Assembly: GCA_964016885.1 (NCBI GenBank)
Contig: CAXHJY010000657.1
Location: 1-51,120, forward strand
DNA from: Eledone cirrhosa
Taxonomy: Eukaryota
DNA length: 51,120 nt
Direction of reading: 5' to 3'
A program made the translations under genes and the position numbers. Under the pieces are notes generated by a model that made no database searches, had not been told where the DNA came from, and worked only from the letters and a program-made list of their open reading frames with translations. Below, in pieces: positions 2,044 to 50,781 of this stretch; the stretch's first letter is position 1, and every line of letters starts with the position of its first letter.

Positions 2044-6562
<4,519 letters not shown>

Positions 6563-6736: not shown

Positions 6737-7090
6737 GGGCCCCGTGCTATCCGTCCCATTCAAAAATCTAAATCGCAACTCATAATAAGAATACGGCACA
6801 ATTATTTCACCTCAATCGGCCCTGCTCTCTTCAACATCACACCAGGACACGTCAAAACAGAAACTGACAACACAAAATTCAAGAAGTCTTTGGACAAATT
6901 CCTCCAAGTAATCCGGACAAACCACCCACACCCGGATATGTCTCCGCAAACAGTAATTCTCTTCTCGAATGGGCCATGGTGCCCAAATCCTGAATTGAAA
7001 GACTTCGCCAGGTGGTGCTATTAAGTTAGACATGGCCTGGGCCAATACTGGCCAAAACATTTCAAAGTTATTCAAAGTTATTCAAAGTTA
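6737..7090 (+). mobile_element. Heavily 5'-truncated copy of LINE family A (3' 350 bp)
   Basis: Nearly identical to ~1700-2043. Tail (TTCAAAGTTA)3. Embedded in (TA)n. Confidence 0.93.
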
Positions 7091-12411
<5,321 letters not shown>

Positions 12412-12415
<4 letters not shown>

Positions 12416-12830
12416 TATAAGATCAAAAGATGGTTAAAGGAGTTCCATGTATTTTATTATGCGCATTTCAAAAACAAACATCATCATGCAATAATATTTG
12501 TGTTTTCACCAGATAAAATAGGAGAACATGATATGGAGGCTAAAAAACACTTGTGGATAGTGCAGTTTTAAATCAACATGTTGATTTAAAACTGCACTAT
12601 CCACAAGTGTTTTTAAGCCTCCATATCATGTTCTCCTGTTTTATCTGATGAAAACACAAATATTATTGCATGATGATGTTTGTTTTTGAAATGCGCATAA
12701 TAAAATACATGGAACTCCTTTAACCATCTTTTGATCTTATATTATGCATACTCCAGTGCTACAAACTGTAGAGTGCTTCTTATCCGATATCTGCATTGCT
12801 TTATTGTACTACAATAAAACTCACCTCCTA
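12412..12830 (+). mobile_element. Fold-back (palindromic) Penelope-type pLTR insertion with hammerhead and 3' tail
   Basis: Spacer-less palindrome 12412-12745 (167-bp arms, centre AACA|TGTT at 12578/12579, a few mismatches). Unique tail 12746-12830. (TA)n on both sides. Confidence 0.8.
12637..12707 (+). ncRNA. Minimal type I hammerhead ribozyme
   Basis: Stem I TGTTTTAT/ATAAAATA; CTGATGA 12645-12651; long stem II hairpin; GAAA 12688-12691; palindromic stem III ATGCGCAT; cleavage triplet AUA. Confidence 0.85.
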
Positions 12831-12882
12831 CATATATATACATATATATATATATATGTATATATATGTATATATATGTATA

Positions 12883-12933
<51 letters not shown>

Positions 12934-12948
12934 GTATATATATGTATA

Positions 12949-12981
<33 letters not shown>

Positions 12982-12996
12982 GTATATATATGTATA

Positions 12997-13029
<33 letters not shown>

Positions 13030-13042
13030 GTATATATATGTA

Positions 13043-13109
<67 letters not shown>

Positions 13110-13158
13110 GTATATATATGTATATATATATATATATGTATATATGTATATATATGTA

Positions 13159-13209
<51 letters not shown>

Positions 13210-13442
13210 GTATATATATGTATATATATGTATATATATATATATATATACATATAAATATATATGTATATATATATGTATGTATATATATGTATATATA
13301 TGTATATATATATATATATACATATAAATATATATGTATATATATATGTATGTATATATATGTATATATATATGTATATATATATGTATATATATATGTA
13401 TCTATATATGTATGTATATATATGTATATATATATGTATATA

Positions 13443-13482
<40 letters not shown>

Positions 13483-13483
<1 letters not shown>

Positions 13484-16190
13484 AACTTTCATAACTTTGA
13501 TAGTTTTCGGCCAGTATTGGCCCAGGCCATGTCTAACTTTATAGCACCACCTGGAGAAGTCTTACAAATCAGTGTTTGGGCACCATGGCTCACTCGAGCA
13601 AAGAGTTATTGTTTACGGAGCATATCCGGGTGCAGGAGGCTTATCCGGTATTTCTTGAAGGAATTTATCCAAAGACTTCTTGAATTTGATGGATTTTGTC
13701 TGCTTTGATGTGTTTTGGTGTAATGTTAAATAGTGCAGGGCCAATTGAGGTAAAATAATTGTGCCGTATTGTTGTCATGTGATGCGCGTGGGATTTTTGT
13801 CGTGGGCGGATAGCATGGGGCCCAAGCCTTGTGTGTACACTAAAAGTGATGCCAACATCATTTGGGATAAGCTGATGGAATATTTTCCACATCATACAGA
13901 TAATGTAGCGCTCACGGCGACGTTGAAGACAATAAAGTTTGAGCTTTTCTAATCGACCCCAATAGTCAAGGCCTGTCATGCCAACTATCTTTTTTGTAAT
14001 TGACCTTTGGGTTGCTTCAACTTTCATGATACTTTGTTTCGTGTGGGGTGACCACAGTGGGCAACAGCATTCAAGGTGGGGTCGGGCAAAAGTGGAGAAG
14101 AGAAGGACAACAGTGTGGATATCTCTCGACTGGAAAGTTCTGAGAATCCAGCAACATATTCTGCGGGCCATATCAACTTTGCTGTTTATATGAGTGGCCT
14201 AGCTTATATTGTTGTCCACAATTACTCCCAGGTTTCTGATGGTATTGAAGCCACTAGAGTTTCACCCGAAGGAAGAGAGTATGGTAGTTTCAGGGCATCC
14301 TTTTTTCCAAAGTGAATTAGTTCAAATTTATCCTCATTCAACAGCATATTATTCATATCTGTCCATTGGATGACAGCCAGTAGGTCTGACTGAAGGCAAG
14401 TCCTGTCACCCACCTCATTGATGACTCTTTGGAGCTTGGAATCATCTGCGAAGATTCTGATGTTGCTGTGTTTGATGATGTCAGTAATGTCATTAATGTA
14501 GATGATGAAAAGAAGTGGGCCCAACACAGTGCCTTATGGGACGCCACTGCTGACTTTAGCAGGGCTTGATTTTACTCCTTCGACTACAAGTTGCTGGGTT
14601 CTGCCTGTCAGGAAACATTTGATCCACTGTAATAACCTTCCAAAGACACCAACATTGGATAGTTTTTTCAGTAGAATCTTATGATCAGCCCTGTCGAAGG
14701 CCTTGCTGAAATCATGGTAGATGACATCAGTGTTGGAGCCCTCTCCCAAGGCTCTCAAAACATCTCCAAAGTGATGCAGGAGCTGCGTTAGGCAGTCCCT
14801 TCCATTACGGAACCCATATTGGTTGGAGTTCAGCAGGCCGTTGCTTTCAAGAAAGTGGGTTATTCGTGATCTCACCACCCTCTCAAATACCTTGATAATA
14901 TGAGAGGTGAATGAGATCGTACGGTAGTTCACTACAAGGGACTTATTTCTCTTTTTGAAGACTGGGACGAAAGTTTTCAGGGATATAGCCAGTGTCCAGT
15001 GTGTTCCTCCACAGATTAGCAAGAGGAGTTGCAAGTTGGTGTCGACACACCTTCAGGATACAAGCAGGGAACATGTCGGGGCCAACTGCTGAATTGTGTT
15101 TAATTTCGTTTATTGCCGCTAAGACATCAGGGGCGCCAAACGTTATGTCTGATATAGTGTGTTGGGGGTTAATATCACTGATACGGCCCAAATCGGCTAT
15201 ATCAGCGTTGCTGAAAACAGCAGTATTGTTTCTGCAGTATCTCGCCCATGGTTTTGGCATTGTCCTGGAGTGTGCCATTTTCATCAACTAGGAGGCCAAC
15301 AGTGCAGACGGTGACCTTGTGTTTTTTAGCGAATGAGAAGAACACTTTGGGGTTGAGTTTGATTTTCTCAATGGCCCACCTCTCTTCAGCTATTCTCTTG
15401 TTATTGATGATGGTCATCATGCATTGCTGGAGGTTATATTTATTTGACTCAAGCAGGGTGATAGCCATTGAATGTGTGTGTTGCTGTTGGCAGTATTTTA
15501 GTGTGTTAATTTTTTTGTTTGTTCTTTTTATTTTTCTGATAATTGTTTTTCTGATTTGGGGGATACTGCACTTAGTTTTGTTCACAGGTTTTGGTGGGGT
15601 GTGTTTTGTACATATATTTGTGACAGTGTCTACAAAGATCTGCCAAGATGTTTTGATGTTGGTGGAAGTGTGTGCGTGTGTAAAAGACCAATCGACATGT
15701 GATAGTTCGTTCATAATTGCATCAGTTGGTCCATGTTATCAAATGGGTGGGCGGAGAGAGGACTCTGGGATTGGCTTTCGGCTGGTGGAATCTCAGCTTA
15801 CAAAGAACCATGTCATGGTCTGAGAGAAGGGTTTTTTCTACTGTAATATTATGTATAGTGTTAGTGTGGTTACTAAACACTAGATCCAGAATGTTCTTCT
15901 GGTTGCTTGTTGGTGCAAGGACAAGTTGTGACAAGAAAAACTCATTCATGAAGTCAAGAAGTGACTCGACAGCCTCTTTGTCAGTGGTTGTGGCTGTGGA
16001 GCCTGGTTTCAAACTACATGTACACCCATCGACACAGGGTAGATTAAAGTCTCCCATCAAAAGTATGTTGTTAGAATGGCACTGTTTGATAAAGCATTTA
16101 ATACTGTTGCGGCATTCTTTGAAACAGATTATGGGTGTTTGTGGCGGCCTATAGAGCCCACCTAATGTGAGGTCATTGGCTTTATTGTGC
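13483..16190 (-). mobile_element. Diverged, 5'-truncated LINE of family A with partial AP-endonuclease and RT; multiple frameshifts
   Basis: Minus-strand ORFs: GLYRPP...LMGDFNLP...ILDLVFSN...SDHDMV (APE, 15722-16192). RT fragments 14534-15034, 14222-14527 and 13665-14171 are homologous to 36-1747. Similar AAAGTTA tail. Confidence 0.92.
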
Positions 16191-19911: not shown

Positions 19912-20724
19912 TTAGTATATCTACTAACATATGCGTACAGATGTACGCTAATGCTAGCAAATACACAGGTTATGTCATAGAACCTAGGTGGTTCAATGCA
20001 GGAGGATGCAGAACAATAATATAAAAGACGTAAAATAAGAAAATTTAAAAAAATTTAAAAAATTAACTTACTTACTAAAATTTTCACTCCAACTAATTAG
20101 TTTCTGCAATGGGATAAAGACAGTTACGTAATCGAACTGTCGAGAATTCATTGCGTCATCAGGGAGTCTATTCTCAGCTGAGTCTCCAGGCAATGCGCGG
20201 ACACTGGGGACTCATATAAAAATAATAATAATTCGGTAGATGGAACAGCTAGCGGGGACTAGATTCCATGCACTGAAAAGCACGCTGTCTCTGATCAAAT
20301 GGCAAATTCTAAAGAATCAATCACGTGACACTGAGGCTAGTCGGTAGGAGTGGGATGGTAAGATGACAGAAGCCTACTATCACACCAATAAATTAGTAAT
20401 GGTTTTGGCAGGTTTGCTGGACAAATAAGTAATTTGGAGATAAATATAGAGAATTTAGTATATCTACTAACATATGCGTACAGATGTACGCTAATGCTAG
20501 CAAATACACAGGTTATGTCATAGTACCTAGGTGGTTCAATGCAGGAGGATGCAGAACAATAATATAAAAGATGTAAAATAAGAAAATTTTAAAAAATTTA
20601 AAAAATTAACTTACTTACTAAAATGTTCACTCCAACTAATTAGTCTCTGCAATGGGATAAAGACAGTTACGTAATCGAACGGTCGAGACTTCATTGCGTC
20701 ATCAGGGAGTTTTCTTATTTTACG

Positions 20725-20770: not shown

Positions 20771-20918
20771 CGAAGGAATTGTGGTAAGGAACCAGATGGA
20801 CCATAACGCACCAAAGTACTCAATACTTGGTGTAGTAGAGTGGGTAATAGGAACTAGTATGACCCCGACGGCAGAGCTCAAGCCGTGTCGATGTCTATTT
20901 CTGGACAGAAATAGCCGT
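20769..20918 (-). mobile_element. Short repeat family P (pLTR-like 3' end with hammerhead 3' half) and a small 5' fold-back
   Basis: Homologous to 22497-22633 and 30635-30732. Ends in the CTATTTCTG-GA-CAGAAATAG inversion. Confidence 0.75.
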
Positions 20919-20998: not shown

Positions 20999-21031
20999 TG
21001 GAAAATGTGTGAGATCCTTGGTACAGTTAGG

Positions 21032-21207
21032 TATATTTGAAAAAAAGGAAACGAATGACTTCACTTGTAGTGTTAAAAATTTTATGATTTAATGTTATAA
21101 TATTATAATATTATGAGTTGGTAGATCCAGTCTATAATATTATAACATTAAATCATACATTTTTTAACACTACAAGTGAAGTAATTCTTTTCCTTTTTTT
21201 TTTTCAA

Positions 21208-21779: not shown

Positions 21780-22431
21780 CTAAATTAAGATAGATTAAAA
21801 GAATTCAATCAGAATCGAAATTGTGGGTGTCATTCCTTAACGGAATGCACCATATCGCCCGGAAAATAAACTCTAGGACTTTGTAGGTACGAGCATTTTA
21901 TAATAATAACTAGGAATTGATCAACATATATATAAATAAATATAAACATGAAAAATCACAGGAGATAATTTTTACAAGCGTGTAACCACGCATGGCTAGT
22001 AGGTAACAAATGAATAAAGTTAACTAGAACTTCAAAAATATATACCTTTTAATGATTAATCTTCCCTGTATATATTTCATTAAAAAAATATATTTCACCA
22101 AATTAATCAGATGGTAAGTCACGGAAAGTGGATATTATTGGATTATCAACAAGGAAGAACAATATCAAGCGATCCATGTTTACACTTCGAGTCAAAATCT
22201 TAAACTGGCCGTTACCACGTGTTGATATTACACATCACAGCGGCTTCGTTTCAGTAGCGTGAATAGGTATTCGACAACTAGAAATAGCAGTCAATTCCCT
22301 TCAAGTTAACTTTATTTATTTGTTACCTACTAGCCATGCGTGGTTACACGCTTGTAAAAATTATTTCCTGTGATTTTTCATGTTTATATTTATTTATATA
22401 TATGTTGATCAATTCCTAGTTATTATTATAT
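21780..22431. repeat. Inverted repeat, ~128-bp arms (21899-22027, 22304-22431) with a ~275-bp spacer and a left-side tail
   Basis: Arm complementarity read directly. Minus-strand tail TGCTC-N17-GAGT. Confidence 0.8.
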
Positions 22432-22631
22432 AGGAACGAGTAGGACCCTGACGGCTGAGCTCAAGCCGTTTCGACGGCTAATTCTGGACTAATTATGTCC
22501 AGAATTAGCCGTCGAAACGGCTTGAGCTCAGCCGTCGGGGTCCTACTCGTTCCTATTACCCACTCTACTACCCTAAGTATTAAGTACTTTGGTGCGTTAT
22601 GGTCCATCTATTTCCTTACCACAGTTCCTTC

Positions 22632-22635
<4 letters not shown>
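22429..22635 (+). mobile_element. Family P copy with a 60-bp 5' fold-back
   Basis: Palindrome 22429-22555. The right arm contains GAAACGGC-ttgagctca-GCCGTC (hammerhead stem III + GUC), followed by the tail. Confidence 0.8.
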
Positions 22636-22660
<25 letters not shown>

Positions 22661-22662
<2 letters not shown>

Positions 22663-22727
22663 ACGAAGGAAGTGTGGTAAAGAACCATGTGGACCATAAC
22701 GCACCAGAGTACTCAATACTTTGGGTA
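22661..22727 (-). mobile_element. Family P tail fragment
   Basis: Reverse complement of the family P tail. Confidence 0.75.
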
Positions 22728-28230: not shown

Positions 28231-28376
28231 ATATAATTGTTTCTACTTTAGGTACAAGGCCAGCAATTATCCAGTACATTACTGGTACTTTATTTTATCG
28301 ATTCCGTAAGGATGAAAGGCAAAGTTAACCTCGGCCGGATTTGAACTCAGATCGCATAGGGACGTAACTATGCTGG
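28231..28376 (-). mobile_element. 5'-truncated tRNA-derived SINE (Nin/Deu-like core)
   Basis: Homologous to 28388-28569. Confidence 0.85.
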
Positions 28377-28387
28377 CCTAATATAAT

Positions 28388-28569
28388 TGTTTCTACTTTA
28401 GGCACAAGGCCAGCAATTACCCAGTGCATTACTAGTACTTTATTTTATCGACCCCGTAAGGATGAAAGGCAAAGTCAACCTCGGCGGGATTTGAACTCAG
28501 ATCGTAAAGGGACGTAACTATGCTGGAAAGCATGGCGTCCGACCCTCTACCGATACTGCCAATCCACCA
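28388..28569 (-). mobile_element. Full-length tRNA-derived SINE with a 15-bp target-site duplication
   Basis: A-box-like TGGCAGTATCGG, B box GAGTTCAAATCCC, core GCCTTTCATCCTTACGGGGTCGATAAAATAAAGTAC. CTGGCCTAATATAAT at both 28373-28387 and 28570-28584. Confidence 0.88.
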
Positions 28570-28619
28570 CTGGCCTAATATAATGATTGGAGAACTGCGA
28601 GACTGTGTCGAGTTTATTA

Positions 28620-28800
28620 TTGCCAGTATCGGTAGAGGGTCGGACACCATGCTTTCCAGCATAGTTACGTCCCTTTACGGTCTGAGTTCAAATCACGCCG
28701 AGGTTAACTTTGCCTTTCATCCTTACGGGGTTGATAAAATAAAGTACCAGTAATGTACTGGGTAATTTGCTGGCCTTGTGCCAAAAGTAGAAACAATTAT
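28620..28800 (+). mobile_element. tRNA-derived SINE, same family, opposite orientation
   Basis: Same B box, core and tail GTAGAAACAATTAT. Confidence 0.88.
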
Positions 28801-29891
28801 TTTACATACGTGAAATAAGTTTGATTATTTTGAATAAATCAAGAATGAATATTATGTAATTTATCTTCTCAATTTCTAGAGCTCTTGGTTAAACATATAT
28901 AATGCTAGCTGTAATACCCGGGAAATGTGGGGTTATTCGCAGTTCCCAGAGTGCTCCTAAAAATGCTAGCGACCCTGGGTGCCCATACTGGATTTTCAAT
29001 CGCAATCTTTACTAGGTGTGTTTATGGCAGATCAGTTTTTTGTGTGGAACTATCAATAGCTGTTTAAGTCATAAGTCATTCTTCCATCCAGCTTTCTTCA
29101 TTCAGAGTGAATAAGCCGGGAAGTTTGAGCTCGAAGAGTATCGAACTTATTCAACAAACTTATGTATAAGAATAGCAAACTTACTGCCATGGCGCTCAAG
29201 AACAAACACAGAACAATTGAAGAAGTCATCGTAATTATTGAAGAAATTATAACCGAGTAGGCATATTCAGGTACTAATCAAGCACCCTGTATTTCCCCGT
29301 TTGTAAAGCCCTTCGTATAACTGTAGCAATTCAATAAAACCATTCCCCCTATAGTAGACATAACCCGAGAAAAAACACCATAATGAGTCGGATAAACAAT
29401 CTGAAGCGATGGCCCTAAAGAGGTCCTTGTAACGTTCACTATTGCAAAGTGTCAATAATGGGAGAGAAGTTACATCTTAATTCGGGTTAATATTCCCACG
29501 ATCCGACATCGGAATATCAACAAAATAAACTCTGCTCTCAAAGACGACATGTTACAATTAACATGCCGGGAGTACGAATATTCGTCAACATACGATTTGG
29601 GTTTTCTTCTTCAGACTAAACTCACAGTAAGCCAACTTCCAGGTCATTGATCATCTTTTGTAACACCTTTTTGTAACTTACCACCGATTCCTGCAGTTGA
29701 CCTTAATGTGACCTAAGCGCTTGCACGTGTTCAGAATCCATATCAGTGGATGTGATAAGTATATACATATATAGAGAGAGAGGTAGAAGTGATAACAATT
29801 GTTCTCGGTATGGTGAACTAACTGTTGTGTTACCACTTATATATATATATATATATAAATTAATAAAATAATGAATAAACAAAGATTTATC

Positions 29892-29931
<40 letters not shown>

Positions 29932-29953
29932 TACACGGGTGTGTATAGAAGAT

Positions 29954-30344
29954 TATATTAATAAAAGGAATTCCAACTTTGTCTGATTTACTCGTTTTAT
30001 TTACAATCCTTTAAAATTTATAATGGTATTAGAATGAAATAGTATGGTAGAATATTAAATTCTAAGTGTTAATTGAACAAGTACGTTCATGCTTTCGCAA
30101 TCTTTAGGTTCATATTGTGTGGTGACAGTCAAGTTTGCAATTTTCAACAGTTGAAAATTGCAAACTTGACTGTCACCACAAAATATGAACCTGAAGATTG
30201 CGAAAGCATGAACGTACTTGTTCAATTAACACTTAATATTTAATATTCTACCATACTATTTCATTCTAATACCATTATAAATTTTAAAGGATTGTAAATA
30301 AAACGAGTAAATCAGACAAAGTTGGAATTCCTTTTATTAATATA
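29954..30344. mobile_element. ~390-bp near-perfect palindrome with a hammerhead-like motif in each arm
   Basis: Centre CAAC-A-GTTG at 30149. Right arm 30186-30224: TGAAC-CTGAAGA-tTGC GAAA GCAt-GAAc-GTAC-TT-GTTCA. Left arm core reads CTAAAGA. Confidence 0.78.
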
Positions 30345-30616: not shown

Positions 30617-30732
30617 GGAGTAAGTAAGACCCCTGGGGTCTTACTTACTCCTATTACCCACTCTACTACCCTAAGTATTGAGTACTTTGGTGCGTTATGG
30701 TCCACCTGGTTCCTTACCACTTTTCCCTCGCT
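30617..30732 (+). mobile_element. Family P copy with a ~17-19-bp 5' fold-back
   Basis: GGAGTAAGTAAGACCCC-T-GGGGTCTTACTTACTCC followed by the family P tail. (TA)n flanks. Confidence 0.8.
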
Positions 30733-30749
30733 ATATATATATGTATACA

Positions 30750-31478: not shown

Positions 31479-34400
31479 TAAAAGAGAGATGCTTCTTGGT
31501 TGGTTGGTTGGTTTAATCACGCGAAAATTACACACACACGTACATAGATACACACACATCTAAAGAGGGGGGGGGGTGAGATGCAAAGAGAGAATGAGAT
31601 AGGCCGTTATACAGAGAGAGGTACAATTAAAGTGTTAGATATTCAGATAGAGAGAATGGCAATGAATGCTGGTTTATACACACACACACGTGTGTGCGTG
31701 TGTTTGTGTATAAAGACAGAGACAGAGAGCGAGATCATCGCATTCTTGATTGTTTCGCGGCCAGCGTCTCTAATTAGTAAGTCAGAGGGGGAGATAGATA
31801 GAGAGAGGGAGAGAGAGAAAGAGTGTGTGTGTGAAGGAAACAGACATAGAGACTAAAAGAGAGGAAGAGTTACAACTCTATGCTTTACAGGAAAAGTGGG
31901 GACGAAATTAACTGTTAACAGAGAAAGTGTAAGATAGACGCTGTATGTTTGTTTCTGTGTGCGTCAATGAAGATGTGTGTTTGTGTGTGCGTCCCACAAT
32001 AGATCAAACTATCAATAAGTTTTTCGTGTTACACCAGTCATTGAAAGTTAAGTGATACTAACTACAACACAACACAAAAAATTGATACTACGGTGTATAT
32101 TAATTTAGCATTTTGAGGATAGTGTCATATTATTATTGACCTAATTCAGACGACAGAGTGTCAACCTATTCCCTAAGGCTGCTATTTACATTTATTTCTA
32201 TTTTTTATATTGTTTTGTACTTTGTGTTGTTTTATTCTGTGATAGTTTCCAAGAAAATTAATTTCATGTCACAAAAACACCACTCATCTATTGCTGTAGT
32301 TACAATGTCCGCCAAACGGTTGAAATCTTCAAACGAAAGAGAAACTCAGAGACGAGAAACAGAAAGATTAAGACAAGAAAGACGATCGCAACTTTCTGAA
32401 TGTAAACATAACTCGAGAAGGGAAACAGAAAGATTAAAGCAAAAAGAAAGACGATCGCAACTTTCTGAAAGATCATACTCACTATTGTTATTTCACAATA
32501 TGCTACCATTTAATCGACAGTTTACTCCCCTAACCTAATGAGGTTTATTTTGGGTCAACAAAGAACAAGAAGCTACTCAACGATGCAGAAATAGTTCCGG
32601 TGGTCTTCAGCTATAAGTTATGAGCAGTCTGAAAAATATGCTTCATGAAAACCATCATTACATAAAAGTATTCAAATTTGCCTTAGAAACAATAAGGCAA
32701 GCCCCATGTATAAAATTACTATTAGACCTGACAAAAAAAACCAGCAAAATAACACAAAAGACGTTGCAACAAACCACTGGAAGACGAAGTGGCTGTACTG
32801 ATGATCAATGAACAACATAAATCCAGAGACATCATTATACAGGAGAGATCTGGCCAATTACGATGAATTGCAGAGACATAGAGTATACTACACTCTTCAG
32901 TATCCTTTGATTTTTTCGAAGGTCAGGATGGATACCATTTCGCATTAAGAAAAGTAAACAACAATACAAGCGAGGAAACTAATAAATCGGTCAGTTGCGA
33001 AAACTTTTAAACATTTCACTCCATGGTAAGAGATTGCTTCAACCATATCCTAAGAATGGGAAGACTTACAAGCCAATTAATGGTTGATGTTTTTGCCATG
33101 ATTGAATCTGAGCGGTTGACATTCATTAAAAACAACCAAGCTAAATTTAGAGCAGGGTAATACATCCATTTGAGAGACACTATTATAGCTGATAGAATAA
33201 ACCCTTCCCGTGTTGGTAAGTCAGTCATTCTTCCATCTAGCTTCATAGGCAGTCCATGCTATATGGCTGAGCGCACACAAGATGCCATGGCATACGTAAG
33301 AAAATTTGGTTGTCCAGATCTTTCCATTACATTTACATGCAATCCTACATGGCCAGAAATTCAAAATGAATTGTTTAACTCCAATATGCAAAATATAGAC
33401 ATGACATCATTCCCAGAGTTTTTAATGAGAAACAAAAGATCTTGATGCGGCTGCTAAAAGATGGACTAATCTTTGGCGAACCAAGATGTGGCTTAACACT
33501 ACTGAATGACAAAAAGGAGGTCTTCCTCATTCCCATATGCTAATTTGGTGTTCAGACCACATTCACTCAGATCAAATTGATAAAATCATAAGCGCCGAAT
33601 TGCCCGTTACTGACGAATACCCAGAACTATTTTCCATTATCTCAAAACAAATTATACATGGTCCATGTGGCAGTATCAACTCTAAGTGTGTGTGCATGGG
33701 AAGTAACAAATGTGCAAAAAGATACCCAAGGCTTTTCAACAAGAAACTGTAACTGATGATGACTGATATCCTCAATACAGACGAAGCCCTCATTGTGGTG
33801 GAAAAACTGCAATTATCAAGATACGTGGTCAAGACATTCAGGTTGGTAACAATTAGGTTGTTCCCTATAATCCCCTCCCCTGCAAAATCCTTGATGCTCA
33901 CATCAATAGTGAGTACAGCGCATCAGGAAAATCAATTAAGTATGTTTGTAAATATGTCAACAAACGTAGTGATATGGCAACTTTTACTATTGGTGGTGAT
34001 AACCAATTGAATGAAGTTAAAAGATATCTAACAGGGAGACATATTTCTAGCAATGAAGCCATATGGAGAATCGTTGGTTTTGACATACACAATAGACACC
34101 CAGTGGTAGTGAATCCTGCTGTCCATTTGGAAAATGGTCAGAGGGTATATTACACCGAAGAAAATTCACAATTGATTGCTGCGTCTCCTCCGGTCACAGC
34201 GCTCACTGCTTTTTAAAAGCTTTTTGAGAAGTTGCCTTTGCTAAATCCGGGATTTATGATGAGTTTCTCACATTGCTTACATGAAATAAAAAGAAATGGC
34301 TATCAATACATCAACGCAAGTGGCACAATAGGAAGAGTTTACACGGTCCATCCTAGACATAGGGAATGTTTCCATTTCAGATTACTCCTTCACACTGTTA

Positions 34401-35776
34401 GAGGGCCAACATCATTTGAAAATATCAAAATTGTACATGGAACTCTCTGTGCAACGTATAGTGAAGCATGTAAATTACTTTGCCTACTTGAAGACGGGGA
34501 ATATTGGAAAAAGACATTGGAATAGGCAGCTGCTACACAAATGTCTAAAAAGATTCGACAGCTCTTCACTGTAATGCTCACTACGTGCAATATTTCAGAT
34601 CCCTTGAGTCTCTGGGAAAGCTATAGGAAAGACTTATCGGAAGATATATTGCACAGGATCAAATTTCACAACACTGGCATTAATGTAGATGTTTCTCCCC
34701 CTATCTATAATGAAGCCCTTTCAGAAATTAACAACCACCAGAGAGAAATTGGCTGGTCCCTTAAAGATTGCCGTTTACCAGAACCTGAGGACACAGTTGC
34801 ATACTCTATTGCACAGGATATATTAAAGGAGATGAATTATGACATCAACAAGCTTACACAATATGTCAATGAAAATGAAGAAAAGCTGATTGAAGATCAA
34901 ATTGCTTATGAAAAAATATTGACCAGTATCGCCCAGAATGAAGGAGGCCTTTACTTTTTGGATATTCCAGGAGGAACTGGTAAAACTAATTGATCAAGTA
35001 TTTCCAAATGTTGCCTCAAATTATATCAATCAATTATAGCTGTTTGAGCGAGCAATTTTAGCGCAAATAAATAATATGGTAAATCAGATCAATCAATGCC
35101 TACGGGATACGCTCCCAGGAGAAGTTCATACACATGTCTCCATTGACAAGATTTAAAAGGATGACGAAGCTGTTAATTATCCTACAGAGTTCCTTAATAG
35201 CTTGGAACTTCCTGGACTTCCTGCACACAAATTAACGCTAAAGATTGCAACTTCCATCACCTGGACCCACCACCTCTATGCAATGGCACGTGCTTAACAG
35301 TGAGGCGGATGATGAAACATCTCCTAGAGGTCACTATTCTTGGAGACAACCATCAAGGCGAAAATGCATTTATTCCAAAGATTCCGCTTATCCCTTCGTC
35401 TATCGAGCTGCCATTCAAATTCTCAAGACTTCAATTCCCCATTAAAGCCAGTTTTGCTATGCTCATATATAGAGCTCAGGATCAGAGTCTCAAAGTTGTA
35501 GGATTGTATCTGAGCGAATCAGTTTTTACTCATGGACAGTTAAATGCTGGTTGTTCACGAGTGGAAACATCTAGAAATCTTCATATACTATGCATGAATG
35601 GTAAAACAAAGAATCTGGTGTATCTGGGAGTTTTTTTTAATACTTTTTTGTCACACGTACACCACGGTATCGCCTCATACTGTAAACTAGACAAGGCATC
35701 AAATACAGTCGTTTTCTCTTCTACCTGTCTTCTCTTATTAACTGTTTACCCGGGCGAAGTCGGGTAACTCATCTAG
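31479..35776 (+). mobile_element. Decayed autonomous Helitron (Rep/PIF1-like helicase pseudogene)
   Basis: Fragments ILPSSFIGSP...QDAMAYVRKFGCPDLSITFTCNPTWPEI, GLPHSH, IHGPCG, AVHLENGQRVY, FRLLLHTVRGPTSFE, GGTGKT, RLQFPIKASFAM. 3' hairpin TACCCGGGCGAAGTCGGGTA then CTAG|T at 35773-35777. 5' boundary approximate. Confidence 0.9.
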
Positions 35777-36124: not shown

Positions 36125-36202
<78 letters not shown>

Positions 36203-36418
36203 GTAGGATAACGATAAATCGTTAAAAGCAATCCGATAAGAGTCTATGAAAACTATTTATTATGGACAGTTTAAGCGTACGGTGCTGTGTGACTCCACAA
36301 GAATTTTACGTTGGTGACGATTTTATGACTTCGCTTGTATCCCTATGTAAATATATCTTGGAGTAATAAAAAAGTGAAGAATAACATGCTTGACAGTATA
36401 AACAAGGAAATTTATTTA

Positions 36419-36525
36419 CAGTCTTACAATTGTTTCCATGATAGAATTGTCTATAAATTGCTAAATACTGGAGACAGTATAACTCAATTTACAAACATCT
36501 AAGTCAATCATTTCATCAGAGACTA
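36419..36525 (-). ncRNA. Type I hammerhead ribozyme (left arm)
   Basis: Reverse-complement copy of 36608-36714 with an intact core. Confidence 0.8.
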
Positions 36526-36607
36526 TTAAGAAATATAAAATATATGCGTAACGGTAAACTTAAATTTTTTTAAGTTTACCGTTACGCATATATTTTATAT
36601 TTCTTAA

Positions 36608-36714
36608 TAGTCTCTGATGAAATGATTGACTTAGTATAACTCAATTTACAAACATCTGTCTCCAGTATTTAGCAATTTATAGACAATTCTATCATGGAAA
36701 CAATTGTAAGACTG
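36608..36714 (+). ncRNA. Type I hammerhead ribozyme with enlarged stem II
   Basis: AGTCT-CTGATGA(36614-36620)-aATGAT...ATCATg-GAAA(36697-36700)-CAATTG-TA-AGACT. Stem III palindrome ACAATTGT; GUA triplet. Confidence 0.83.
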
Positions 36715-36758
36715 TAAATAAGTTTCCTTGTTTGTACTGTCAACCATGTTATTCTTCA

Positions 36759-36807
<49 letters not shown>

Positions 36808-40447: not shown

Positions 40448-40624
40448 GGTGAATTGGTAGTATCGGTAGAGGGTTGGACGCCATGCTTTCTAGCATAGTT
40501 ACGTCCCTTTACAGTCTGAGTTCAAATCCCGCCGAGGTTAACTTTGCCTTTCATCCTTACGGGGTCGATAAAATAAAGTACCAGTAATGTACTGGTTAAT
40601 TGCTGGCCTTGTGCCAAATGTAGA

Positions 40625-43989: not shown

Positions 43990-44605
43990 TCAGGTAACAT
44001 GTATCCCAGTACAACCTGTCTCATGGTCGGGTCGTTGGCGACTAAACTGGCAACCCCACCAAGGTTTCTTGTTGAGGAGGGTGACTTTGGACATCCTGCT
44101 GGACTAAAAACAAAACCTGTCAAAGGGCAAAGGAGCTCTTAAGAGTCAATGGCCATCCAAAATCACCGGGAGAGATGACCCCTTTAGCCTTAGTCAAGGC
44201 AGAATTCTAGGAGAAGGAAAACTCTGATATAACACCTGCAACCCTGATGGTATCCAATGATGTTGACTTGTTCTTCTTTTTGGTAAATAGCATCTTGGTT
44301 AAGAGAGTGGGACTGGCTTTGTGCAGTGCCTTTGCTCACTATAAAAGCTTCACGGCACAGGCATTGCTTTATATCTGGAGATCTCTCTGCACTTGTCCTC
44401 ACATGGGCCCAGCACTATGTGTCAATAATTGTCCTACCATGGGCCTAGCACTATGTGTCAATAATTGTCACAGGTGTAGTGTTTGTACCAGAGATTTCAA
44501 GTCGCTGGCTGGACTAAAAAGTCACACTCGTTCAGCGCTTCGGTAGGGGTTATCCTACATGGATGTAAAGTAGTGGCCGTACTCGAAAACGAGTTGGCAG
44601 CCACC
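43990..44605 (+). mobile_element. Non-autonomous RTE-like bipartite element, copy 1
   Basis: 5' part resembles RTE 5' UTRs (GGAGAAGGAAAACTCTGA). 3' part encodes [19 protein letters not shown], an RTE-type C-terminal zinc-finger remnant. Ends in the hairpin GTGGC...ACTCG-AAAA-CGAGT...GCCAC. Near-identical to 50145-50781. Confidence 0.65.
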
Positions 44606-45121: not shown

Positions 45122-45170
45122 GTATATACAATATTAAATAAATGGAAAACTATATTTATAAAACCATATT

Positions 45171-45236
45171 TATTTCATTATATATATTTCGGGGATATCA
45201 TATTAACAATATGCTATGCCTTCATCAGACAAAATA
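45171..45236 (-). ncRNA. Type I hammerhead ribozyme (left arm)
   Basis: Reverse complement of 45405-45470. Confidence 0.82.
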
Positions 45237-45404
45237 CAATATAAACAGTTTTATAGATAAATATATTCGACATACCGTAATAAACATCAACTTCATTTGA
45301 AGAGGTTTACTCTAGAGGTTTACTGCTAGAGTAAACCTCTTCAAATGAAGTTGATGTTTATTACGGTATGTCGAATATATTTATCTATAAAACTGTTTAT
45401 ATTG

Positions 45405-45470
45405 TATTTTGTCTGATGAAGGCATAGCATATTGTTAATATGATATCCCCGAAATATATATAATGAAATA
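45405..45470 (+). ncRNA. Type I hammerhead ribozyme
   Basis: TATTTTGT-CTGATGA(45413-45419)-stem II-GAAA(45451-45454)-TATATA-TA-ATGAAATA. Stem III palindrome ATATATAT. Confidence 0.82.
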
Positions 45471-45612
45471 AATATGGTTTTATAAATATAGTTTTCCATT
45501 TATTTAATATTGTAAATATACTCCAAATATTTGTCGAGTGCTTTTATATCAGTTATAAATATTTACTAGTTGTAACCCAACAATTTTAAATATAATTTTA
45601 CATGTATATATG

Positions 45613-45929: not shown

Positions 45930-45960
<31 letters not shown>

Positions 45961-45999
45961 ATATTAAATAAATGGAAACTATAATTATAAAACCATATT

Positions 46000-46065
46000 T
46001 ATTTCATTATATATATTTCAGGGTTAACATATAAACAATATGCTATGCCTTCCTCAGACAAAATA
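46000..46065 (-). ncRNA. Type I hammerhead ribozyme in the Penelope 3' pLTR, same sense as the ORF
   Basis: Minus strand: TATTTTGT-CTGAGGA-AGG...CCT-GAAA-TATATA-TA-ATGAAATA. Confidence 0.85.
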
Positions 46066-46904
46066 CAATATAAACAGTTTTATAGATAAATAGATTCGAC
46101 ATACCGTACTAACATCTACTTGCATTTGAGAAGGTTAATTTGGTTGTGACAAAATTGTACACAGAGAGAAAGAAAGAGGGAGAGAAGGAAAGAGAGAAAA
46201 AGAGAGAAAAAAGAACGAAAGACAGAAAACGAAGAAAAAGAAAAAGAAGAAATGCATGGAACAAAATAGAGAGATGGAAAGATAGATAAAGAGAAGAACT
46301 TCATGTAAAGAAACAGAAAGAGATATATATATATAGAGAGAGAGGAAGTAGAGATAGATACATATATAGAAAGCTAGGTAGTGGAACGACTGTTGAATAA
46401 CGTATCAATGATACATTTATTTGTTTATTTATTTATTTAGCTCTAGTATTAATGTAAGGGAGATGTATGGAGGGAAAACCAGCTGTTAAATAGGGAGAGA
46501 AAAAATATAGAGAGAGAAAAAAGAGAGAGAGAAAATTCAAAAACATCCAGACACTAGCGAGGCGTACAAACCTCTGTTTTAATGTAGAGGTATTAGTAAT
46601 TACAAAACCAGCCTCTGCATTGTAAATATCAGTATTCCTGAATGAGATATGTATCCACAATGTGTGAAAATTAATGATCTTATGTTTAGTTTTTTTAAAA
46701 ATTCATATGTTTATGTGATAATTACAAACATCTATGTGAATGTACATGCTCAATTCTGCAAACCCTAAGTTCACGGAAAGTATTCTCAATGCGGTATAAA
46801 AATTCAAGTATACATATATGTGTATATAGAGTCAATATTACTATTTCTATCTCTACTCTACAAGATTATCTATCAAGCAAAGATAGAGCAGATTTCAATA
46901 TACT

Positions 46905-50144: not shown

Positions 50145-50781
50145 GTCAGGTCACCAGTTGGTGCTACTGGTAACATGTATCCCAGTACAACCTGTCTCAT
50201 GGTCGGGTCGTTGGCGACTAAACTGGCAACCCCACCAAGGTTTCTTGGTGAGGAGGGTGACTTTGGACATCCTGCAGGACTAAAAACAAAACCTGTCAAA
50301 GGGCAAAGGAGCTCTTAAGAGTCAATGGCCATCCAAAATCACCGGGAGAGATGACCCCTTTAGCCTTAGTCAAGGCAGAATTCTAGGAGAAGGAAAACTC
50401 TGATATAACACCTGCAACCCTGATGGTATCCAATGATGTTGACTTGTTCTTCTTTTTGGTAAATAGCATCTTGGTTAAGAGAGTGGGACTGGCTTTGTGC
50501 AGTGCCTTTGCTCACTATAAAAGCTTCACGGCACAGGCATTGCTTTATATCTGGAGATCTCTCTGCACTTGTCCTCACATGGGCCCAGCACTATGTGTCA
50601 ATAATTGTCCTACCATGGGCCTAGCACTATGTGTCAATGATTGTCACAGGTGTAGTGTTTGTACCAGAGGTTTCAAGTCGCTGGCTGGACTAAAAAGTCA
50701 CACTCGTTCAGCGCTTCGGTAGGGGTTATCCTACATGGATGTAAAGTAGTGGCCGTACTCGAAAACGAGTTGGCAGCCACC
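50145..50781 (+). mobile_element. Non-autonomous RTE-like bipartite element, copy 2
   Basis: About 4 substitutions relative to copy 1, plus an extra 20-bp hairpin at the 5' end. Confidence 0.65.

Follow-up and report, generated by a model that had tools for sequence, protein, structure and literature searches.

Positions 12412-12830 of a 51,120-nt stretch of Eledone cirrhosa DNA (hereafter the window) raise two questions: what kind of unit is built as a palindrome without a loop and with a tail on one side only, and how was its mirror arm made? The two arms (12412-12578 and 12579-12745) measure 167 bp each, meet with a loop of 0 nt, and differ at three pairs of bases (12542A/12615A, 12519T/12638G, and 12509C/12648A). 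The tail is 85 nt long (12746-12830) and is found on the right arm only. The original prediction had read this layout from the letters, and the loop-less 167-bp arms, the CTGATGA of the right arm, the CTGGTGA of the left arm (change at 12509), the 85-nt tail, and the (TA)n ends were all borne out. The features are listed below, where pLTR denotes a putative end module of Penelope-like element (PLE) type.

7089 to 13484, no strand: (TA)n-type microsatellite array, the target, which contains the insertion
12412 to 12578, minus strand: inverted, tail-less PLE-type end module (pLTR), whose head is at the centre and whose 3' end passes into (TA)n where the proximal fixed end lies
12450 to 12520, minus strand: hammerhead motif of the mirror arm, its core (12512-12506) reading CTGGTGA through A6 to G at 12509, predicted cut after 12458
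12570 to 12587, no strand: head-to-head junction, where the heads overlap on AT (12578-12579); sister copies have an extra AT or ATAT
12579 to 12745, plus strand: end module (pLTR) in direct orientation, between the fixed head and the proximal fixed end
12637 to 12707, plus strand: minimal hammerhead motif of type I, its stem III palindromic and loop-less, with cleavage predicted after 12699
12746 to 12830, plus strand: tail, on one arm only, with TACTCCA at 12749, ending in (TA)n at the distal fixed end

The array around the insertion is 6.4 kb long, and both ends of the unit pass into the repeat. Both flanks are TA-type repeat, and no target-site duplication (TSD) is readable there. When the 419 nt of 12412-12830 are folded as RNA, a single hairpin of -276 kcal/mol is predicted (z -40), which none of 100 shuffles equals; the tail and the head fold no better than their shuffles (z -1.1 to +1.0). 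The unit carries no attached open reading frame (ORF), and a 29-codon open frame across the tail was judged to be due to chance. Variant units within the array are strand-biased (410 G versus 152 C on the plus strand), and the other long TA arrays in the window show a positive GC skew like that of this array. LINE-type RT fragments occupy 1-2034, 4484-6309, 6743-7081, and 13493-16180, several of them ending beside the longest TA arrays, and a 10-bp tandem repeat (7061-7091) is located at a junction between a LINE fragment and a TA array. A 608-bp island is duplicated at 43993-44600 and 50169-50776 (99.3%), each copy following a long TA array and containing a 36-bp internal tandem repeat. A SINE-like repeat of tRNA type, which we take to resemble octopus SINEs, recurs in tandem and inverted copies at 28231-28804 and 40454-40617, and the broken ORFs at 33857-35767 presumably resemble a Helitron Rep/PIF1 helicase.

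Each arm contains a hammerhead motif. The right-arm motif, on the plus strand, begins with stem I TGTTTTAT (12637-12644) and CTGATGA (12645-12651), followed by a 36-nt stem II hairpin, GAAA (12688-12691), the loop-less palindromic stem III TGCGCA, the predicted cut site after 12699, and the stem I partner ATAAAATA, which gives a stem I of 8 bp. This motif reads away from the centre of the palindrome, and the left-arm motif has the same layout on the minus strand with the CTGGTGA core (A6 to G at 12509). A descriptor search found five exact-core motifs in the window, and 40 random versions of the 32,892 unmasked bases gave a mean of 0 and a maximum of 0 such matches. No match was found by Rfam at the gathering score in the whole window; 46 weak matches (E up to 10) were hairpin-driven, with no hammerhead family among them, and those from the hairpin include miRNA-type ones. 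Base pair 10.1-11.1 is A-U here and usually G-C. Judged by sequence, this lowers the case for ribozyme activity and leaves the motif assignment as it is. One motif is on the plus strand and the other on the minus strand, so they are never part of one transcript, and a cis hammerhead dimer formed by the two arms is ruled out.

The original prediction contrasted an intact core in the tailed arm with an inactivated core in the mirror arm, words that we would apply to the motif only. A6 of the hammerhead core is required for cleavage. Our literature search on a change of A6 to G found no test of it, and the accessible text of PMC2632901 deals with a loop position. The contrast proved to carry no signal. 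The change is found in less than 3% of the family, one of three random mismatches falls among the 12 core bases with a probability of 0.20, and neither core is altered in the sister palindrome at 45127-45514, so selective inactivation of one core was rejected. No family variant reaches 3% at 12648, which makes the core change at 12509 private; we read it as a private mutation rather than a family feature, with no functional meaning.

The features of the unit coincide with those of PLE insertions: a minimal type I hammerhead with a small palindromic helix III in the end module, an inverted copy placed head to head at the 5' end with a palindrome at the junction, a tail at one end between two fixed 3' ends, and an AT-rich or (TA)n target. 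According to the accessible text of the papers cited, the inverted pLTR of PLE insertions adjoins the 5' end, palindromes mark the head-to-head junctions, and a tail may be present (PMC3846280), and PLEs target (TA)n or other microsatellites, by which TSDs are hidden (PMC8557442). Minimal hammerheads with a palindromic helix III are located in PLE pLTRs, and opposite-strand pairs of them, 100-700 bp apart, are tied to truncated PLEs in Schistosoma (PMC4209133). We conclude that the palindrome is, with high probability, an ORF-less insertion unit of a Penelope-like retrotransposon. Its arrangement (inverted pLTR, pLTR, and tail) is a known PLE arrangement, and this family is a new member. The original prediction was right in taking the unit to be retro-derived and hammerhead-bearing, and made no mention of Penelope.

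Other copies of the unit were sought in public sequence runs. The stretch is wholly or partly present in 20 of the 24 listed runs (15 studies), with at least half of its words in five; no RNA run is listed among them. Positions 12555-12836 were aligned to four runs, of which X1 gave 3,403 contigs and X4 gave five; runs X18-X21 and X24, with small word shares, were left out, and the Hi-C raw-read runs X22 and X23, with 0 reads placed, carry no weight either way. The family is highly abundant in this short form. As X1 contains 75% of the sampled words, the exact locus is probably absent from it. Summed contig depth is not copy number, and depth across a perfect palindrome is undercounted, so that the depths give no ranking of the junction classes. 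No match to a 24-base pattern taken from the head was found in metagenome, prokaryote-genome, or viral contigs.

In X1, contigs end into (TA)n behind 12745 (22 contigs), 12742 (13), 12732 (40), and 12833 (11), from which it follows that the outer ends of this unit, the tail-less one of the mirror arm as well as that of the tail, recur in the family. Unlike sequence stands upstream of 12578 in 16 contigs of X1 and one of X4, so the centre of the palindrome is the natural head of the family. In one X4 contig (record 9), 207 nt of non-mirror sequence precede the head and form a 6-bp palindrome with it; this sequence may be the upstream sequence of the parent element. The centre is crossed in mirror form with AT added in nine contigs (depth 11,980 of 21,161) and with ATAT added in three. 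At least 19 distinct joints leave the inverted head; in 11 of those tallied the partner arm begins within the arm, in seven within the tail, and in one at the head. Each joint is one contig (depth 8-160), and one further joint, from 12604, is omitted from this tally. Among the joints listed, the partner start is between 55 and 235 nt away from the head and never closer, though nearer ones may be hidden. All 12 joints whose letters are shown read CAACAT-AT. The fixed outer ends, the fixed head, and the variable partner starts indicate that the junction is built anew, and the expectation that outer ends would be fixed while junctions vary was thereby confirmed in the family contigs. Because no contig spans the whole stretch, the arm that bears the tail is not visible at the truncated junctions.

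These contigs bear on two rival explanations of the palindrome. The first is a fold-back artefact of assembly or library preparation, to which the absence of any record spanning the stretch in the runs compared, and the 75% word share of X1, lend some colour. It is very improbable: the arms differ at three sites, the place where the mirror arm stops is a biological end and the tail is missing from that arm, the 12 public-run contigs pass through this centre with an additional AT or ATAT, and the arms of older units in the window have diverged (91% and 82%). The arm differences had already led the original prediction away from a simple assembly fold-back, and the contigs across the centre agree with this. 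The second is a DNA transposon of MITE or foldback type, inserted at TA and bounded by very long terminal inverted repeats (TIRs); this would match the long inverted repeats and the TA flanks. The tail on one side, the variable and asymmetric junctions, the hammerhead, and the single-armed copies with unlike 5' flanks are not those of such an element, and no constant palindromic unit is found. The family contigs largely refute this reading, which we regard as scarcely credible, and here too the original prediction, which had treated the unit as something other than a MITE, stands. Units of this kind are readily mis-annotated as MITEs or miRNA hairpins.

Self-comparison of the window and a scan for palindrome centres found three further hammerhead-type palindromes, at 29954-30344, 36380-36753, and 45127-45514. 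In all four the tail is on one side only, measuring 83, 26, 171, and 84 nt up to where the first TA-type run begins, and TA-rich repeats stand at the ends. TACTCCA is found at most 7 nt from the arm end in three of the four, so that the motif at the start of the tail here (12749) is common to two other families in the window, families that can otherwise barely be aligned; the chance of this in the two other families is about 1e-6 for a motif picked after the fact. The sister palindrome (45127-45600 with its flank) has identical arms of 189 nt, both cores intact, an 84-nt tail with TACTCCA, and a 10-nt loop that repeats nearby bases. The unit at 36200-36760 is an older palindrome (91%) with a 171-nt left tail and, by eye, a hammerhead with a very long stem II; a 22-nt micro-inversion in one of its arms (about 36635-36656) is a sign of template switching from arm to arm. 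The unit at 29928-30344 has 195-bp arms with four mismatches, a 1-nt loop, a 26-nt tail, and a core that looks by eye like a degenerate hammerhead, with GAAC for GAAA.

Further units of similar build are found in the window. A solo copy without a mirror arm (45958-46136, minus strand) is 92% like the 45127 unit, contains the hammerhead module, lacks the tail, and stops at the same proximal end as the mirror arm of its family. A short family (22430-22727, 20780-20914, and 30621-30735) is variably truncated and shares a 78-nt 3' part ending in (TA)n; one member has 63-bp head-to-head arms and another a 15-bp palindromic head. By descriptor, no hammerhead was found in the short look-alike units at 22430-22556 (78-nt tail) and 21040-21200. 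A decayed palindrome (82%) with a one-sided tail lies at 21001-21205, and a 131-bp inverted pair (98%) with a 270-nt spacer at 21899-22430. A 245-bp direct repeat (19923-20167 and 20466-20710, 97%) is possibly a partial tandem pLTR, and its first copy contains a hammerhead motif with a palindromic stem III on the minus strand (20162-20091).

A candidate coding sequence is present in the same window as a broken ORF of PLE type (49040-47502, minus strand), in which we take the RT and GIY-YIG motifs to be those of PLEs. Pfam assigned no family to either piece of this ORF. Its look-alikes in the Atlas (0.96-0.98), some with GIY-YIG (60% and 35% of members), serve as a lead only. The solo module at 45958-46136 lies on the same strand ~1.36 kb downstream, a spacing that recalls the spacer between the ORF and the 3' pLTR of rotifer Pen1 (PMC3846280). 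When the palindrome unit was compared by blastn with the DNA that follows the ORF, no match was found, and this result, like the lack of an ORF attached to the unit, counts against the explanation favoured below.

Turning to the mirror arm, we lean slightly towards a second cDNA, primed on the other strand of the target and joined end to end with the first. The RNA of the PLE would start at a fixed head ~120 nt upstream of the hammerhead cut site and would have two reverse-transcription start sites downstream, at 12745 and at about 12830. The PLE protein would presumably nick both strands of the (TA)n target, with one cDNA made per nick; the distal start would give the tailed arm and the proximal start the tail-less arm. 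Both cDNAs would reach the head of the RNA, and their self-complementary AT or ATAT 3' ends would then be joined and filled in, giving a spacer-less head-to-head palindrome with a tail on one side. The three arm mismatches would be later mutations or differences between templates. A PLE protein has been reported to cut and extend both target strands in vitro, with AT-rich DNA preferred, and to start at two RNA sites whose spacing equals the tail (PMC11167929). The two-cDNA route would rely only on activities shown in vitro and fits the zero-loop centre, for which it would account. The solo copy, which stops at the proximal end without any mirror arm, shows that this end arises without fold-back. 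The literature searched on Penelope twin priming and inverted copies held nothing on a two-cDNA step, which we therefore infer.

The bases at which the arms differ or agree point in both directions. At 12615, 99.8% of the family has T, as in the left arm. The family is split at 12638 (77% G, 23% A), and each arm has a different one of these two alleles, a weak hint in the sequence of two templates. At 12621 (mirror 12536) a C stands in both arms, as against T in 99.99% of the X1 family depth and in X4. This shared C is a sign of a single template that was copied two times, of a variant of the lineage, or of conversion between the arms at a later date, and it counts against two cDNAs, being what fold-back predicts.

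Fold-back is the origin that the original prediction proposed: the first cDNA would reach the head of the RNA, prime itself, and be copied back, with the second strand cut or stopping at the boundary of pLTR and tail. We hold it to be possible, short of probable. Self-priming has been proposed for PLE head-to-head junctions (PMC3846280), to which this idea stands close, and resolution by the endonuclease has been proposed for PLEs (PMC8557442). The head-to-head polarity fits priming on the antisense strand, the sister palindrome (45127-45514) shows no difference between its arms along 189 nt, and one arm is complete in 19 of the 19 head joints listed, although the stretch that was aligned favours the detection of such joints. 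Against this, only 0-1 base pairs would be available for priming at a loop-less centre, the two arms carry different bases at a position that varies within the family, and an extra, precise cut is required at 12745, while ends of this type come about as primary ones, as the solo copy demonstrates. The partner starts, none of which lies closer than 55 nt among the joints listed, also speak against fold-back, with the reservation that fold-backs with short loops could be hidden by the way the contigs were aligned. The proposal of the original prediction thus keeps its nearness to the published idea and leaves unexplained the stop of the mirror arm at a second fixed 3' end, the priming of the zero-loop centre, and the same end in the mirror-less solo copy.

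Host repair offers another route, in which a single short PLE copy was later duplicated in inverted orientation by break repair in the fragile (TA)n array, through a hairpin-capped end or a template switch. The site within 6.4 kb of TA repeat would suit such an event, and the micro-inversion at about 36635-36656 shows that template switching between arms occurs. Repair by the host would not respect the fixed proximal end and the head of the family at many loci and in several families, and we consider this origin improbable.

The two-cDNA route can be elaborated further, at the cost of confidence: the stubs may possibly be by-products of a capped PLE RNA with two start sites just downstream of its 5' end and of a protein pair that joins two cDNAs at a (TA)n break. 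The base that follows CAACAT-AT in the 12 junctions is C in six, G in three, T in two, and A in one; C after the last templated base has a P of about 0.007 at 16% C, and one of these cases is also explained by the partner arm. In this small sample, the excess of C would fit copying of the 5' cap. The inserts at three of the 12 junctions repeat the terminal few bases of the head, which under the capped-RNA reading would be re-copying of the RNA end, a telomerase-like reiteration. If this reading is true, several abundant families that share TACTCCA form a natural library for the study of how PLE inverted ends and tails are formed.

A read-through transcript of the locus would, according to the predicted fold, form a 167-bp duplex in which the sole sense hammerhead is buried. 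As the original prediction proposed, such a duplex might be a source of endo-siRNA or a substrate of ADAR, and the DNA might extrude a cruciform. In octopus, abundant perfect hairpins of 170-190 bp could feed A-to-I editing if they are transcribed. The single locus is ordinary, being one of many PLE stubs of an architecture in print since 2013-2014. The formation of PLE inverted ends and tails is stated to be unresolved in the accessible text of PMC8557442 and PMC11167929, and the value of the present case lies in the family, whose fixed, countable ends and many independent junctions could separate fold-back from the joining of two cDNAs.

Among known systems, the family was not found by name in the literature searched, and supplements of the cited papers may picture the same short units. 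In its accessible text, an octopus repeat annotation lists Penelope families and has 0 occurrences of 'hammerhead' or 'palindrom' (PMC13282606). Naiads are described as being without canonical hammerheads in the accessible part of PMC8557442, and the canonical-type hammerhead here argues against the Naiad clade. Non-LTR retrozymes are likewise short, non-coding, and PLE-related with a type I hammerhead; they are arranged head to tail in tandem, whereas the unit here is head to head and ends away from the cut site (bioRxiv 10.64898/2026.07.22.740005). A tandem retrozyme was rejected, as no direct repeat of the unit is found within the window and the arrangement is head to head.

The hammerheads of PLE pLTRs (PMC4209133) have the same CUGANGA/GAAA core, long helix II, small palindromic helix III, and extra base after A9 as the motifs here, which form a pair ~130 bp apart on opposite strands. 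The G10.1-C11.1 pair is highly conserved in them, in contrast to the A-U pair found here with a helix I of 8 bp, and the Schistosoma minimal motif is described in the accessible text of that paper as showing no cleavage as a monomer. PAc, a Poseidon PLE of Anolis (PMC11167929), has the same two fixed 3' ends bounding a tail downstream of the hammerhead, and AT-rich targets. PAc is autonomous and tandem with its starts mapped in vitro, whereas the starts here are deduced from genomic ends; no clear AC-rich stem loop was seen in the folds of the unit, which were no better than those of shuffles. Hammerhead cleavage was dispensable in vitro for the PLE protein, and cleavage by the PAc hammerhead needed the protein, according to the same source. 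Head-to-head insertions of endonuclease-positive PLEs (PMC3846280, PMC8557442) have published tails of 30-40 nt, compared with 85 nt here, and unlike them the unit here is ORF-less and very abundant, with both arms at one fixed head. They share with it the inverted 5' copy, the palindrome at the junction, the tail at one end, and the microsatellite target that hides TSDs.
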